A stretch of 42,709 nucleotides of DNA from Eubacteriales bacterium (lineage in GTDB: Bacteria; Bacillota; Clostridia; Oscillospirales; CAG-272): positions 1 to 42,709 of the forward strand of contig JAZRPI010000122.1 in assembly GCA_045649165.1 (NCBI GenBank), read 5' to 3'. Below the pieces are notes generated by a model that saw only the letters and a program-made list of their open reading frames with translations, was not told where the DNA came from and ran no database searches. Shown one piece after another: positions 1 to 40,706 of this stretch. Position 1 is the stretch's first letter, and each line of letters begins with the position of its first letter. A program made the position numbers and the translations under genes.

Positions 1-122
1 TTTTTTTTGCACAAAATTTGACAAAAATTGCCCTAAATTTGACAAAAACTGCCCTAAATTTGACAAAAAATGCCCTAAATTTGACAAAAAATGCCCTAAT
101 TTTTTAGATTTATATTGACAGT
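1..122. repeat. Left copy of the flanking direct repeat (truncated by the window start)
   Basis: Base-for-base identical to 40544..40665 when read by eye. The two copies diverge after ...tatattgacagt (123 ctaaac vs 40666 agttta). Confidence 0.95.
14..97. repeat. Four tandem 21-bp iterons AAATTTGACAAAAANTGCCCT
   Basis: TTTGAC recurs at 17, 38, 59 and 80 (exact 21-bp period). The units differ at one or two positions within bases 14-15 of the unit. Each unit contains TTGACA. Confidence 0.95.
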
Positions 123-143
123 CTAAACATAAAGCGGTAATCT
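115..143 (+). promoter_or_regulatory. Sigma70-like promoter, TTGACA-17 nt-TAATCT, with the -35 inside the repeat and the -10 outside it
   Basis: TTGACA at 115..120, a 17-nt spacer at 121..137, TAATCT at 138..143. The right-hand repeat copy has the same -35 but no -10 at the matching distance. Confidence 0.5.
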
Positions 144-149
144 TAAATT

Positions 150-296
150 AACTTATAAAAACGAAAATCGTAATGAAAAAAACGATTTTCACAAAGTTTA
201 GTAAGTTTAATTTGAATCCGCTTGATTAAACTTACTAGCAATAGTAGGGATAGCCCCGATAAACAAGCGGATAGTTTATCGGGGTTTGTTTTTTTT
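150..296 (+). ncRNA. Candidate structured RNA or leader: three hairpins ending in an intrinsic terminator
   Basis: Hairpin 1: 163..171 / 182..190 (9 bp, perfect). Hairpin 2: 199..211 / 225..237 (13 bp, perfect). Hairpin 3: 254..264 / 274..284 (11 bp, perfect) followed by a T-run. No ORF present. The start is inferred from the promoter, not mapped. Confidence 0.5.
254..296 (+). terminator. Rho-independent terminator
   Basis: Stem ccccgataaac / gtttatcgggg (11 bp), 9-nt loop, then tttgtttttttt. Confidence 0.8.
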
Positions 297-307
297 AGGA
301 GAACAAA

Positions 308-10446: not shown

Positions 10447-10451
10447 GACAA

Positions 10452-10478
10452 AGACCACCAACTCGGTGGTCTTTTTTA
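10452..10478 (+). terminator. Rho-independent terminator
   Basis: agaccacc / ggtggtct stem (8 bp) plus a T-run. Confidence 0.8.
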
Positions 10479-12614: not shown

Positions 12615-12640
12615 AGCTCTGACAAGTTCAGAGCTTTTTT
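12615..12640 (+). terminator. Rho-independent terminator
   Basis: agctctga / tcagagct stem (8 bp) plus TTTTTT. Confidence 0.8.
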
Positions 12641-12662: not shown

Positions 12663-13322
12663 ATGAGAGAAATAACACCAGATACAAAGATTAAATTATC
12701 ACAAATAAAAAGACTTATTACTGATAAACATAGTAAAGATCAAGTCGGAACAGTCAGAAGATGGTCAGATAATAAATTACATGAGAAAACAAGTCACGGG
12801 TGGAAAGTTGTAGCAAATAATAAAGAATATGAAATAAAAGAATATAAAGAAGAGAAATCAAGAAAAGATTTATCACCCAAAATAACAACACAAAAGCAAT
12901 TTAATATTTTTGTGGATAACTTATTTAATAAAAACTATAAAGAAGCTGTTTCTACGATTCACCTACCACAAATAGATAGAAAATTATTAAAACAATTAGG
13001 TATCAAAGATAACACGCAGTTTATTTTTAAAGCTAGATACCCACACATAAATCCACAGAGAAAAGCAAACGAAGGTCAAGCCTTAAGGGAAGAAGAATAC
13101 AAAGCCATTCCAAATGCAATAAAAAACGCAAAAGAAGCATATATTGATAAAGAGAATCATAATTTTTTTATTATATTTCAAGATTTAAAAGATAATTCAA
13201 TGGTAAACAAAATTGTATTCAATAAAACAATTAAAGGGAATTATTTAGTAACTATAGGAAAAGTAAATAAAAAGGAAAGTATGAATAAGAAAAAAATATT
13301 GCTCGTAAAAGGTAGGAGTTGA
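12663..13322 (+). CDS. Hypothetical protein sharing the N-terminal T-x-DTKIKL module with the 672-aa protein
   Basis: MREITPDTKIKL... compared with ...RITADTKIKL in the previous gene. The last 6 codons run into the minus-strand tRNA-like element. Confidence 0.6.
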   Translation: MREITPDTKIKLSQIKRLITDKHSKDQVGTVRRWSDNKLHEKTSHGWKVVANNKEYEIKEYKEEKSRKDLSPKITTQKQFNIFVDNLFNKNYKEAVSTIHLPQIDRKLLKQLGIKDNTQFIFKARYPHINPQRKANEGQALREEEYKAIPNAIKNAKEAYIDKENHNFFIIFQDLKDNSMVNKIVFNKTIKGNYLVTIGKVNKKESMNKKKILLVKGRS

Positions 13323-13379
13323 ACCTACATACCAGTCATAAAATAATGGCTGCCTATTTCCACATTTAGGTACATTTAC
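13304..13379 (-). tRNA. tRNA-like gene with a non-canonical anticodon arm (possible pseudo-tRNA or unusual tRNA)
   Basis: Minus strand: acceptor GTAAATG / CTTTTAC (6 of 7 bp), D-arm CCTA-AATGTGGAAA-TAGG, T-arm GTAGG-TTCAACT-CCTAC, variable loop GGTAT. The anticodon stem AGCCA / TGACT has one C-A mismatch and an 8-nt loop TTATTTTA. Confidence 0.45.
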
Positions 13380-13391
13380 GAGCTTACTATT

Positions 13392-38702: not shown

Positions 38703-38708
38703 ATTTAT

Positions 38709-38750
38709 AAAAGGTCTTGGAGAAATCTAAGGCCTTTTATTTTTTTATTG
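38709..38750 (+). terminator. Rho-independent terminator at the end of the late operon
   Basis: aaaaggtc / ggcctttt stem (one G-U pair) followed by atttttttt. Confidence 0.6.
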
Positions 38751-38815
38751 ACGATTGGAAAAAATCAATATTAATTTTTTTGTATGCTTTATACAAAAAA
38801 GGAGACACATATAAG

Positions 38816-39070
38816 ATGTGTACAAAATCGCCATCGGTGGCATATTACAACCAAAAAATAAGAACCACCAAAAAATCACAATTACTCATAGAATGGGCAG
38901 ACGCGCCACTCACCGAAAAAGAGAAAAGTTTTTTATTAGATGTATTAGAAAAACTTCCGTTGAAAGAATTATCTAGCAAATATTGTATGACAGACAGCGG
39001 AATATCGAAATACAAACGGCGAATTTTTGAAAAATTGCACCAATTTGATATGTTCCAGATACGAAAATAA
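38816..39070 (+). CDS. Small HTH regulator (LuxR/GerE or sigma region 4-like)
   Basis: LTEKEKSFLLDVLEKLPLKELSSKYCMTDSGISKYKRRIFEKL. ATG at 38816 after AAGGAG. Confidence 0.55.
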   Translation: MCTKSPSVAYYNQKIRTTKKSQLLIEWADAPLTEKEKSFLLDVLEKLPLKELSSKYCMTDSGISKYKRRIFEKLHQFDMFQIRK

Positions 39071-39090
39071 GAAAAAAATAAATAAAATAT

Positions 39091-39153
39091 TTCGTTAATT
39101 TCGTTAATTTCGTATTTTTCGTTTATTTCGTATTTTTTGTTTATTTCGTGGTT
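39091..39153. repeat. Seven tandem 9-bp repeats TTCGTWWWT
   Basis: TTCGT (once TTTGT) at 39091, 39100, 39109, 39118, 39127, 39136 and 39145. Confidence 0.9.
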
Positions 39154-39155
39154 CT

Positions 39156-39205
39156 GAAATGAAATGAAGAGAAATGAATAGAAATGAATAGAATAGAAAT
39201 GAATA
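39156..39205. repeat. Ten tandem pentamers GAAAT/GAATA (10-bp GAAATGAATA super-period)
   Basis: GAAAT GAAAT GAAGA GAAAT GAATA GAAAT GAATA GAATA GAAAT GAATA. Confidence 0.9.
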
Positions 39206-39208
39206 TTT

Positions 39209-39240
39209 AAAAAGGGGAATGAATCCCCTTTTTCTTTTTT
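39209..39240. terminator. Bidirectional terminator (A-run, stem, T-run)
   Basis: aaaaagggga-atgaa-tccccttttt. Lies immediately downstream of the transposase stop codon. Confidence 0.7.
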
Positions 39241-40504
39241 ATGCGCTGATTTCTTTGGCATACGAAAATAAATACCTGTAAATAATATTTTCAAGGACTG
39301 TAGAAATAGTTTCACCCAGCCCGTCCATAATGTAAGGGTCTAGGCATACAACAGGGAAATATTCACCGTCAATATTTGCCAAAAATCCACGCTCTGAAAT
39401 ACAAATGTCGAATTTTCTGTAACATAGATTTTTAACTTTTGTATCAATTGCAAACTTATACCCGTGGAAAGAAAATCCTCCAGCTTTGTCGGTGGTTCTT
39501 TGAATTCGGCATTGCAGAATATCGTCAAGATTAGAAGGACAGTCTAGCCAGAATGTATCATCATCGGCAGGTGTAACAGAATAGGAATTATTGAATTCAC
39601 AAATATATTTATTAAGAATCTGATTAGCTTTGTCGATACTATTAGCACCGTGTAATTTGAGCCACACAGGAAGCTGCCCTTGGATTGTTCGCCACATTCT
39701 CTCAACTCGTCCCTTTGCTTCGGGAGACCATGCCAGAATTTGTTTAATACAAAGTTCTGACAACATACGCTGCCATTGGGTGCGCTCTTCGTGTAGAACT
39801 TCCAATTGTTCCCATTTTGCTAATTTTTTATGGCCTTTTTTAGATTTTGGAGTTACGCAAAAAATCGCGGCACGGTCGCTGTAAATTTCTCTAGGGATAC
39901 CGTAATGCTGGGCTGTTTGGCGCAAGATTTCCATGTAGCCAAATAAACATTCGTTTTCAGTCATATACAGCCCTGTAATCTTTCCTGTTGCATCGTCGAT
40001 AGAACCGCAGAGACAATAGCGTTTCTCATCGCCAAATTTATAAAACCAAGCAAACGGAGTGCCGTCAATTTGAATTAAATCGCCTTCATTGGCTCGTCTT
40101 ATTCTTGGACGGTGGACTTGTTTCTTTTGCTTTTTGTGGTGAGCTTCGGGCGAAGTCTGGCCATATTCTGCAAGGATAGTGCGTAGTGTTGGATAACTGA
40201 TTTTTATATTTTTTTCAGATTCTAAATATTTTTGAAAATATGAAAAGTTGACATCGACAAAATCGGCAGCATAAGTAGCTGCGATTAATTGGCGAGTTGC
40301 AGAAGAAATCCTGTTGAGTGCAGGCTTACCCTTGCTTTTGTGTTCCAGACACAAAAGACCTTCTGCAAGATATCGTTTTTTTAATGCACACAAATATTCA
40401 GGTGTGTAGCCTGTACTTTCTGCTGCCTGTTTCAGCGTATACTTGCCTGTTGCAAGTCCCCGTAGATAGGCTGGTAACAGCCCTTTATTTTTGAATTTTC
40501 TCAT
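39239..40504 (-). CDS. DDE transposase/integrase with an rve-type catalytic core and N-terminal HTH
   Basis: LIQIDGTPF (D), IYSDRAAIF (D), SPEAKGRVERMWRTIQ (E). The N-terminus is HTH-like. ATG at 40504 chosen because the longer ORF merely translates the iterons. Confidence 0.85.
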   Translation of the reverse strand: MRKFKNKGLLPAYLRGLATGKYTLKQAAESTGYTPEYLCALKKRYLAEGLLCLEHKSKGKPALNRISSATRQLIAATYAADFVDVNFSYFQKYLESEKNIKISYPTLRTILAEYGQTSPEAHHKKQKKQVHRPRIRRANEGDLIQIDGTPFAWFYKFGDEKRYCLCGSIDDATGKITGLYMTENECLFGYMEILRQTAQHYGIPREIYSDRAAIFCVTPKSKKGHKKLAKWEQLEVLHEERTQWQRMLSELCIKQILAWSPEAKGRVERMWRTIQGQLPVWLKLHGANSIDKANQILNKYICEFNNSYSVTPADDDTFWLDCPSNLDDILQCRIQRTTDKAGGFSFHGYKFAIDTKVKNLCYRKFDICISERGFLANIDGEYFPVVCLDPYIMDGLGETISTVLENIIYRYLFSYAKEISA

Positions 40505-40543: not shown

Positions 40544-40665
40544 TTTTTTTTGCACAAAATTTGACAAAAATTGCCCTAAATTTGACAAAAACTGCCCTAA
40601 ATTTGACAAAAAATGCCCTAAATTTGACAAAAAATGCCCTAATTTTTTAGATTTATATTGACAGT
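40544..40665. repeat. Right copy of the flanking direct repeat; overlaps the region upstream of the transposase gene
   Basis: Identical to 1..122. Lies 40 bp upstream (minus-strand sense) of the transposase ATG at 40504. Confidence 0.95.
40557..40640. repeat. Second copy of the four 21-bp iterons
   Basis: Same array as 14..97, offset by 40543 bp. Confidence 0.95.
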
Positions 40666-40670
40666 AGTTT

Positions 40671-40706
40671 AAAAAACAAGGCCGTATTCAATAAAAATAC
40701 AGCCTT
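40671..40706 (-). terminator. Terminator of the host exporter gene
   Basis: Minus strand: aaggctgtatt...aatacggcctt hairpin followed by a U-run. Ends about 5 nt from the repeat boundary at 40665. Confidence 0.65.

Follow-up and report, generated by a model that had tools for sequence, protein, structure and literature searches.

The contig JAZRPI010000122.1, which we analyzed over its whole length of 42,709 bases (the window, one entire NCBI contig with a G+C content of 34%), carries a phage whose early genes are preceded by a short, highly structured leader RNA, and it is this leader that concerns us here. All credible genes from 308 to ~39,070 lie on the + strand, and every gene of the phage but one is on that strand. 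Among those behind the leader are genes for a Gp157-like protein (697 to 1305), SSB, ERF, HNH, two Dcm methylases, an IstB-like ATPase, RecU, and an N6/N4 methylase, with further + strand open reading frames (ORFs) downstream of the last. The exception is an ISNCY-family DDE transposase gene on the − strand (39239 to 40504; NCBIfam NF033594 at 282.6 bits against a cutoff of 250; Pfam HTH_29, HTH_32, and rve). It occupies the integrase/repressor position, points away from the early operon when the genome is circular, and is the only recombinase candidate found. It is followed in the contig by the second copy of a 122-bp repeat (40,544 to 40,665) and then by a terminator of the host and a − strand gene for an MMPL transporter. 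The named relatives of the MMPL protein in a protein search were mostly from Treponema metagenome-assembled genomes (MAGs), as were the genome-collection matches to the Gp157-like protein. Among deposited phage genomes we found no close relative.

The early promoter (115 to 143, + strand) consists of a −35 hexamer TTGACA (115 to 120), a 17-nt spacer, and a −10 hexamer TAATCT (138 to 143), from which transcription would start near 150. A preliminary description of this DNA, made from the sequence alone, had called it a good promoter with its −35 inside the flanking repeat. Both hexamers are where they were said to be, but the −10 matches TATAAT at only three of six positions, and a consensus scanner preferred TTGACA(81)-18-TAGATT(110). 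The 115/138 promoter is nevertheless the one whose position is conserved in all relatives, which have a better −10 there (TAATAT, TAACAT, TATACT, TATATT, or TATTAT). In the related loci L029, L033, L034, L035, L039, L053, L057, and L042, the −35 is likewise a perfect TTGACA, and a −10-like hexamer follows after 17 nt.

Three perfect hairpins of 9, 13, and 11 bp follow on the + strand, just as previously described. The first, H1 (163 to 190), has a stem of 9 bp (163 to 171 with 182 to 190) and a 10-nt loop. The second, H2 (197 to 239), has a stem of 13 bp (199 to 211 with 225 to 237), extendable to 15, and a loop at 212 to 224. The third, H3 (252 to 296), has a stem of 11 bp (254 to 264 with 274 to 284), extendable to 13 (252 to 264 with 274 to 286), and a 9-nt loop (265 to 273). 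Its GC-rich base is followed by the U-tract TTTGTTTTTTTT, which runs to 296, so that H3 has the sequence of a textbook intrinsic terminator, as it had been called; the corresponding hairpin of every homologue does likewise. RNAfold gives −45.3 kcal/mol for 145 to 300 (z = −6.7), a value that none of 200 shuffled sequences equaled. The ribosome binding site was said to start 3 nt after the T-run, but the Shine-Dalgarno sequence (SD) AGGAG (297 to 301) adjoins it directly and serves a 46-amino-acid (46-aa) ORF (308 to 448) with a basic N terminus and a hydrophobic tail, the whole unit spanning 297 to 448 on the + strand. This first ORF has no Pfam or PHROG match, and the identity of the first ORF differs among relatives rather than being conserved. 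Since the phage's own promoter lies upstream of H3, transcription into the early operon must pass this terminator, as the preliminary description had pointed out.

The loops of H2 and H3 are complementary. Element a, ATCCGCTTG (216 to 224), abuts the 3′ arm of H2, and in most homologues it is likewise right-justified in its loop; element b, CAAGCGGAT (264 to 272), comprises the terminator loop and the top of the 5′ arm. One is the exact reverse complement of the other, and the match can be extended to 13 nt at 92% (216 to 228 with 260 to 272). No further copy of the 9-mer exists in the 42.7-kb window, and because it is found at these two sites alone, we ruled out another target for the loop elsewhere in the phage.

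To follow this complementarity in relatives, we took contigs of graded Gp157-like homologues, from 99% down to ~50% identity, which came from alignment-based scans and exact-protein look-ups. A single-protein scan of IMG/VR with the Gp157-like protein returned only relatives of 24 to 26%, and an exact-pattern scan of the same database (ATCCGCTTG-N25-50-CAAGCGGAT) returned 26 loci, none homologous by BLAST, which we therefore discarded as chance matches. The order transposase(−)-repeats-promoter-leader-early genes(+) recurs in L029/L030 and L136 to L145 (97 to 99% transposase identity), L033 and L034 (79 to 80%), L039 and L053 (56 to 57%), and L035 (36%), so that orthologues of the transposase adjoin the leader across a range of 36 to 99% identity. 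The leaders of these relatives are ~110 to 150 nt long, and each ends in a strong terminator just before the SD of the first gene.

Each relative keeps the complementarity between the terminator loop and that of the hairpin before it while the sequence itself differs, and at least 11 co-varying sequence types were found. Thus, the window's a/b pair (ATCCGCTTG/CAAGCGGAT) is replaced by ATCGCGCTTG/CGAGCGCGAT in L033 and by CCGTCTTT/AGAGACGG in L053, each with one G-U pair, by TCGCGCTTG/CAAGCGCGA in L034, by GAGCGATT/AATCGCTC in L039, and by a weaker GGTCGA/TCGACC in L035. The early operons of more distant phages are headed by the same module with yet other versions of a, namely, GGGACATTT (L057), TTTGTGGTC (L087), TGCTCGATT (L042), GCTGCATTA (L112/L113/L132), GCTGTGTTT (L074), GCTTCGAG (L069/L120), and the weaker CCGTTAC (L130). 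The exact complementarity of 216 to 224 with 264 to 272 had been taken to make an interaction possible, and conservation in related phages had been named as the check; the hairpins and the loop complementarity are indeed kept there, with covariation, which supports a functional pairing.

Because the loop registers shift by 1 to 3 nt between clades, we tested complementarity sequence by sequence, with shuffle and opposite-strand controls, in place of a covariance model. Terminators were defined with RNAfold in all fetched loci and de-duplicated, and one was counted as positive if a perfect complement of its loop of at least 8 nt lay within 130 nt upstream (loop-shuffle p <= 0.02). Positives made up 13 of 91 distinct terminator hairpins on the + strand, the strand of the early operon, versus 0 of 93 on the − strand (Fisher p = 6.6e-5), and their loops were unusually long (mean, 8.9 nt versus 7.1 nt). 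In a natural MAFFT alignment of six leaders, all cells of a:b were paired (100%), and 3 of its 8 pairs had changed on both sides. H2 was also 100% paired, with three compensatory pairs, and H3 was 93.6% paired, again with compensatory changes; the helix conserved least was H1, with 79.6% of cells paired and no counterpart in L039. Sliding the partners by 1 to 3 columns made pairing collapse to 34 to 50%. H2, a:b, and H3 all include G-U pairs, which argues that the conserved entity is a + strand RNA rather than a palindrome in duplex DNA. Almost no unpaired sequence is conserved in the alignment, apart from the promoter and the first few bases of the transcript.

No Rfam family reached its gathering threshold anywhere in the window. 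A permissive search of 100 to 560 (E <= 10) gave ten matches, none of them an immunity RNA, and the best, CopA, scored 20.7 bits against a threshold of 60 and covered the terminator hairpin only. The C4 and IsrK/seqA-type families, which we take to be in Rfam, were on that basis not matched either. A regulatory RNA is present in outline, but we assign it to none of the precedents that had been offered (P4 CI, C4, and put), and the Rfam scan that had been proposed as a check speaks against the immunity RNAs among them. We conclude that the leader is a previously undescribed RNA that is conserved before the early genes of a Treponema phage family.

How might two complementary loops act? The preliminary description envisaged a kissing or pseudoknot interaction between the folded hairpins. 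The pairing it rests on is conserved, but a:b is most likely an alternative nested helix, given what folding models predict for the growing transcript. When the RNA is cut just after b, the nested a:b helix is part of the minimum-energy fold of 7 of 11 homologues, with an advantage of 2 to 9 kcal/mol. For the window, a:b has a probability of 0.99 at 273 nt that falls to 0.86 at 280 nt, and at 296 nt the ensemble flips to H2 plus H3 (P ~1, with P(H3) = 1.0); H1, H2, and H3 together form the full-length equilibrium fold. The nested a:b helix (216 to 272, + strand; 216 to 224 with 264 to 272, extendable to 216 to 228 with 260 to 272) encloses a further hairpin, H2′ (231 to 248, + strand), in which CTTACTA (231 to 237), from the 3′ arm of H2, pairs with TAGTAGG (242 to 248) in the linker, so that H2′ excludes H2. 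In the window, H2′ has a predicted energy of −6.8 kcal/mol (z = −4.1, p = 0.004), and most homologues have an equivalent that stands out against shuffled sequences (p < 0.05 in 9 of 12 and p <= 0.01 in 7; mean z = −2.7). In the same predicted fold of the nascent RNA, a 5′ segment, U (150 to 162, + strand), pairs with the 5′ arm of H2 (196 to 207) and encloses H1.

The placement of the two elements points the same way. Element a has 2 to 5 spare loop nucleotides on its 5′ side, whereas b fills the terminator loop with 0 to 3 to spare; by general pseudoknot geometry, the placement of a would be favorable, and that of b would bar a closed terminator stem from coexisting with the full 9-bp helix. 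In the leaders of L132 and its kin, a is not a loop sequence but falls partly within the 3′ arm of an upstream hairpin, which suggests alternative pairing. H2 and H2′ are, moreover, two mutually exclusive structures that are both conserved, the signature of an attenuator. Taken together, the nascent ground state, H2′, the loop geometry, and the position of a in the L132-type leaders would make H2 the anti-antiterminator, a:b with H2′ the antiterminator, and H3 the terminator. We find here what computation can find of an attenuator: a terminator between promoter and first gene, an alternative fold that uses the terminator's nucleotides, and both alternatives kept in relatives. On balance, we lean toward reading the leader (150 to 296) as a self-contained, bistable transcription attenuator with a:b as its antiterminator, a reading in which we place a modest measure of confidence.

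Such an attenuator would work as follows. In the terminator state, H1, H2, and H3 would form, and a leader RNA of ~145 nt would be released. In the read-through state, a would pair with b, the freed 3′ arm of H2 would be captured by the linker as H2′, and the 5′ arm of H2 would pair with the 5′ end of the transcript. Because b is transcribed ahead of the 3′ arm of the terminator, and a is exposed in its loop as a toehold, the a:b helix could form first. A rigid helix of 9 to 13 bp in a loop with one spare nucleotide would then prevent or slow closure of the terminator stem, and the polymerase would read into the early genes. The terminated fraction would be set by this kinetic competition and by anything that masks a.

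Several points tell against this reading. The covariation within the alignable clade amounts to few independent events, and transcription start, termination at 296, and read-through are all predictions from the sequence. The a:b helix covers only the loop and ~1 to 5 nt of the 5′ arm of the terminator, so that the GC-rich lower stem is left free, unlike in classical antiterminators, and that termination would be blocked follows from our reading of the constraints on pseudoknot loop length, not from a calculation. H2 would form first and is predicted to be very stable (13 to 15 bp), and it would have to refold to a:b in the time window of transcription; 4 of 11 homologues retain H2 in the minimum-energy fold of the nascent RNA. 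Finally, we looked for a leader peptide, an antisense promoter, and conserved unpaired sequence and identified no sensor or trigger among them. As to the first, the leader had been described as free of ORFs. It has no conserved one, but an 18-codon ORF without an SD does run from ATG 173 to TAA 229. We rejected leader-peptide attenuation, since this sole ORF lacks an SD, is absent from L029 despite a Gp157-like protein that is 99% identical, and is absent or different in L033 and L034. We detected no antisense promoter opposite the leader; the nearest promoter-like site on the − strand is at 1829, and the terminator has no U-tract on that strand. The near absence of conserved unpaired sequence fits a mechanism based on RNA alone better than a metabolite aptamer or a site for a host protein. 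These trigger-free data are compatible with a purely kinetic attenuator or with a leader RNA that acts in trans.

The nearest functional analogues, going by design, appear to be the antisense-controlled attenuators of plasmids, such as pT181 repC, pIP501/pAMbeta1 repR, and pCF10 prgQ/Anti-Q. In these, too, a promoter-proximal leader pits a "preemptor" helix against an intrinsic terminator, and the deciding sequence is exposed in a hairpin loop where RNA can mask it. They differ from the phage leader in two respects: here, no antisense promoter is detectable and the complement of a exists only in the leader itself, and the competing helix is aimed at the loop and top of the terminator and not at its whole 5′ arm.

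A leader at the head of a long operon could also act on the polymerase rather than on one terminator. The put, EAR, canT, and conAn2 elements are structured RNAs near the start of long mobile-element operons that enable polymerase to pass terminators (PMC11658703, PMC8191782). A folded leader of this kind would make polymerase resist H3 and the terminators downstream of it. The gene arrangement would suit such an RNA, as all phage genes bar the transposase are on one strand and further + strand terminators lie at 10450 to 10474, 12615 to 12635, and 38707 to 38740, and the alternative fold consists of two long stem-loop domains; cis-acting antiterminator RNAs are, moreover, established in mobile elements (PMC11658703, PMC8191782). 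The terminator at 10450 to 10474 is strong and bidirectional and parts the early region from a 672-aa ORF. Because of it and the one at 12615 to 12635, the single-strand genome must comprise several transcription units or need antitermination. However, HK022 put, Bacillus subtilis EAR, Tn916 canT, and pLS20 conAn2 act processively, by modifying polymerase, on any terminator, whereas the complementarity found here is specific to the adjacent terminator, which points to local structural competition. A processive RNA would have no need of complementarity to the loop of its neighboring terminator, and we saw no conserved primary sequence of the type that contacts polymerase. Nor was there an Rfam match, including to EAR, if EAR is represented there as we presume. 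Processive antitermination is a possible mode of action that would leave the terminator-specific complementarity without an account, and as an explanation of the leader, it strikes us as very improbable.

The promoter context bears on when the leader would be made at all. Positions 1 to 122 of the window (+ strand) are identical to 40544 to 40665, and this repeat had been described as a flanking repeat. In a related strain, the corresponding site is empty (L146, 8377 to 8480): beyond an MMPL gene that is 98% identical and its terminator, the sequence runs ...ACTACT|TGATAAAC... into the next host gene and contains neither the phage nor the repeat. This rules out the repeat as an att core or target duplication; it is instead the phage's own right end (hereafter R; 40544 to 40662, + strand). 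Host homology to L146 begins at window position 40,663, so that the phage would end in ...TATATTGAC(A), with the −35 hexamer, TTGAC(A), as the tip of the element (40662/3). The two R copies diverge at 123, 2 nt past the −35, where the predicted left tip (CTAAACATAAAGCGG...) begins, and the −10 sits 16 nt inside this point; the left host junction is outside the sequence seen. In every metagenome relative, transposase(−), R, and leader are contiguous. The simplest reading of these sequences is that 1 to 122 is not attL but a circle or concatemer junction that was assembled onto the integrated right junction; a tandem prophage is a possible alternative.

If one copy of the prophage is integrated, host DNA would accordingly lie upstream of the −10 and the leader. 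The predicted attL, ...TTGTTTATCAAGT|CTAAACATAAAGCGG, would offer TATCAA as its −35, with 2 of 6 matches, and the early promoter is thus probably assembled only on circularization. This arrangement would resemble the circle-junction promoters of IS3, IS30, IS21, and IS256, where the −35 is at one tip and the −10 inside the other, and abutment alone makes a strong promoter (PMC3299598). In the phage circle, the right tip would supply the −35, and the −10 would come from just within the left end. The present element differs in being a 40-kb tailed phage with an ISNCY DDE transposase, in having no terminal inverted repeats that we could detect, and in that its promoter would drive the lytic early operon and not the transposase. 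In the window, L033, L035, L039, and L053, the left tip matched the reverse-complemented right tip no better than shuffled sequences did. Transposase use by phages has a recent parallel in the IScream phages, temperate gut phages that lack a conventional integrase and apparently use a DDE (IS30) transposase (PMC12823448). Here, however, the enzyme is of the ISNCY and not the IS30 family, and a single inward-facing gene at one end takes the place of IS30 copies at both.

Within R, 21-bp direct repeats (TGCCCTAAATTTGACAAAAAA) occupy 8 to 27, 29 to 48, 50 to 69, and 71 to 90, with a partial unit at 92 to 111, and a second set lies within 40551 to 40654. They stand between the transposase gene and the early promoter, each contains TTGACA, and relatives that are nearly identical have between 3 and 5 of them; they are candidate binding sites for the transposase or a regulator. 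More distant relatives have other repeated motifs, e.g., ATTGCAYTT in L039. Close relatives carry a gene for a Gp10_C tail-fibre-like protein immediately upstream of the transposase gene. In a second clade, comprising L112, L113, L132/L135, L133, and L134, the same left end, (T)TAACAACAAGCGA..., abuts five unrelated flanks ~100 to 330 nt upstream of GGCTGCATTA, which indicates that phages of the L132 type insert at many sites. In the stretches of this clade that were fetched, we detected no copy of the DDE gene of the window.

A terminator so close to the end of an element could simply be an insulator. IS200 and IS10 are known to be protected from outside transcription, and H3 might in the same way block transcription that enters the left end, or damp the early promoter, without any switch. 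The a-b contact would then be structural, compacting or stabilizing the leader or 5′ untranslated region, e.g., against nucleases or as an RNase III site. Position favors this: the leader begins ~30 nt from the predicted tip in the window and within ~35 nt of the left end in the L132-type relatives with their five flanks, and the predicted full-length fold is the one with the terminator closed. In Tn916, the terminator T1 just inside the element's end shields its genes, whose expression needs the circular form (PMC11658703), and if the split-promoter reading is correct, H3 looks partly like it. What sets H3 apart is that it lies 3′ of the element's own junction promoter, so that the phage's own transcripts must pass it, and that its loop is complementary to that of an upstream hairpin. 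Insulation would leave unexplained both the conserved H2′ and the predicted nascent ground state of most homologues, and by our reading of kissing-loop geometry, a 9-bp helix in a 9-nt loop closed by a stem would be sterically strained. We therefore judge a fixed insulator quite unlikely. We also considered whether transcripts reading through from outside would fold toward termination, and rejected this, since longer 5′ extensions strengthened the helix between U and the 5′ arm of H2 and still allowed a:b.

The element has no recognizable CI/Cro-type repressor, and RNA-based immunity had been put forward to account for this. Immunity RNAs, which are produced in the lysogen and cut by RNase P out of the leader that they regulate, exist in P4 (CI) and P1/P7 (C4), and N15 CA is another with logic like that of P4 CI. 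The P4 CI and Gifsy-1 IsrK RNAs are sense-strand leaders of phage operons that control premature termination or expression of their own operon (PMC4825925). Like P4 CI (with its seqA, seqB, and seqC), C4, and IsrK, the present leader is a sense RNA complementary to a site in its own transcript. It matches none of them in sequence or structure, its single target is the terminator loop, and we saw no evidence of processing. Moreover, the module coexists with protein repressors in two relatives, where it lies downstream of divergent genes for an XRE-type HTH protein (a 110-codon ORF in L057) and a Peptidase_S24 protein (L042), so that the leader RNA is no substitute for CI. If the promoter is split in the prophage, the leader RNA would probably not be made in the lysogen at all, which likewise argues against immunity of this kind, and the split promoter would explain the missing repressor better and more simply. 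In L057, the palindrome AAAGTAAT-N6-ATTACTTT occurs twice (400 to 500), 5′ of the −35 and at the position of H1, so that H1 may there be a DNA operator rather than an RNA hairpin.

A broader version of the idea, in which the leader acts in trans as a self-recognizing small RNA (sRNA), deserves more weight, although we still think it rather unlikely. Terminated leaders would display b, kiss the a loops of nascent leaders, block a:b in cis, and so raise termination; the outcome would be a feedback shut-off of the early genes or an immunity specific to each phage's loop, and this would extend the antiterminator reading rather than exclude it. The complementarity is confined to the apical loops of two very stable hairpins, the classical format of antisense recognition, and the loop sequences vary while the architecture is kept, as expected of specificity determinants. 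The loop often contains a U-U-N-R motif 5′ of a, which reads UUGA in the window as well as in L033 and L034, and no conserved sequence for binding a protein or ligand is visible. There are precedents in IsrK, a terminated leader that acts on its own read-through transcript, and in P4 CI RNA (PMC4825925). Against these stand the presence of the module in phages with ordinary divergent repressors (L042 and L057) and the split promoter, which, if real, would leave the lysogen without leader RNA and hence without immunity. A terminated leader also contains both a and b, which may sequester each other, the genome offers the 9-mer no further target, and no Rfam family reached threshold, with no immunity RNA among the ten weaker matches. 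Joining the two ideas gives a more speculative picture, which we consider unlikely: a lysis-lysogeny circuit free of any repressor, in which a promoter present only at the junction is combined with a/b leaders that recognize nascent ones and set a phage-specific threshold of feedback or immunity at the terminator.

In a more remote version of that circuit, the RNA would guide the ISNCY transposase as seekRNAs do, which raises the question of whether the a...b repeat serves as a guide or acts at the level of DNA, either as an inverted protein-binding site or through an RNA that directs a recombinase like the seekRNAs and bridge RNAs of IS1111 and IS110. A circle-junction promoter that also transcribes a non-coding RNA located at the element's end is exactly the arrangement of IS110/IS1111 (PMC11187229). 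The promoter spacer, too, contains AAAGCGG (130 to 136), which repeats 6 nt of b (AAGCGG, 131 to 136), and this hexamer is AAGCGC in L033 and L034, in step with their change in a/b. Yet the recombinase here is an rve/ISNCY DDE enzyme and not a DEDD one, a or b matches the target site over just 4 nt, and the module also occurs in L042 and L057, in whose fetched stretches no copy of this DDE gene was detectable. As a DNA site, half-sites 39 bp apart and always in hairpin loops would make an implausible operator, and the G-U pairs and strand specificity indicate pairing between RNAs. We accordingly give next to no credence to a guide or DNA-level function. The 5′ arm of H2, AGTAAGTTTAA (200 to 210), resembles the host target flank AGTAGTTTAA (40663 to 40672) at 10 of 11 positions with one indel; this is relevant only for a guide role and is probably chance in AT-rich DNA. 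The spacer AAGCGG was also considered as a "decoy" b that would pair with a in transcripts entering from outside, and we rejected it because RNAfold gave P = 0 with native, R-derived, or random upstream flanks.

Elsewhere in the window, some further features caught our attention. Between the first and second ORFs (448 to 497) lies a tRNA-like minihelix, GGCGA ... CAAGGG-TTCAATT-CCCTTG-A-TCGCC-CA, with a canonical T-arm and an acceptor-like stem, followed on its 3′ side by a GGTGGCCACC hairpin (503 to 520). The T-arm is kept with compensatory changes in L033, L034, and L053, and the L053 version ends in CCA. Neither ARAGORN nor Rfam made a call at 448 to 497; the minihelix may be a processing site for RNase P/Z or a relic att sequence of the tRNA type. 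ARAGORN did call a tRNA-like gene on the − strand at 13303 to 13380, with an undetermined 4-nt anticodon (attt) and a low end that overlaps the end of the ORF at 12663 to 13322, a call that is probably spurious or marks a degenerate tRNA. At the other end of the gene array, a stand-alone unit between two strong terminators (38707 to 39233) contains an 84-aa ORF (38816 to 39070) with weak similarity to sigma-70 region 4 (TIGR02937, under the cutoff). On its 3′ side are ~7 ATTTCGT repeats and then ~6 GAAATGA(AT) repeats (39075 to 39200), and the unit could be a regulator with its own binding sites, or an origin.

The interpretation of this leader as a regulatory RNA is thus right in outline, and its promoter context suggests a circularization-dependent early promoter in a phage that uses an ISNCY transposase. 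Phages of spirochaetes are almost unstudied, and we know of nothing established about how they regulate their genes. In this setting, the leader appears to be a compact RNA switch without a counterpart in Rfam, kept by covariation across gut and rumen Treponema phages, and its design is unusual in that the competing helix is aimed at the loop of the terminator rather than at its arm. If the junction-promoter reading is true, the lytic genes would be silenced by separating the two halves of their promoter on integration, an arrangement that is known for insertion sequences and, loosely, for Tn916, although we know of no tailed phage that uses it. It would also extend the recently recognized group of transposase-mobilized phages to the ISNCY family.

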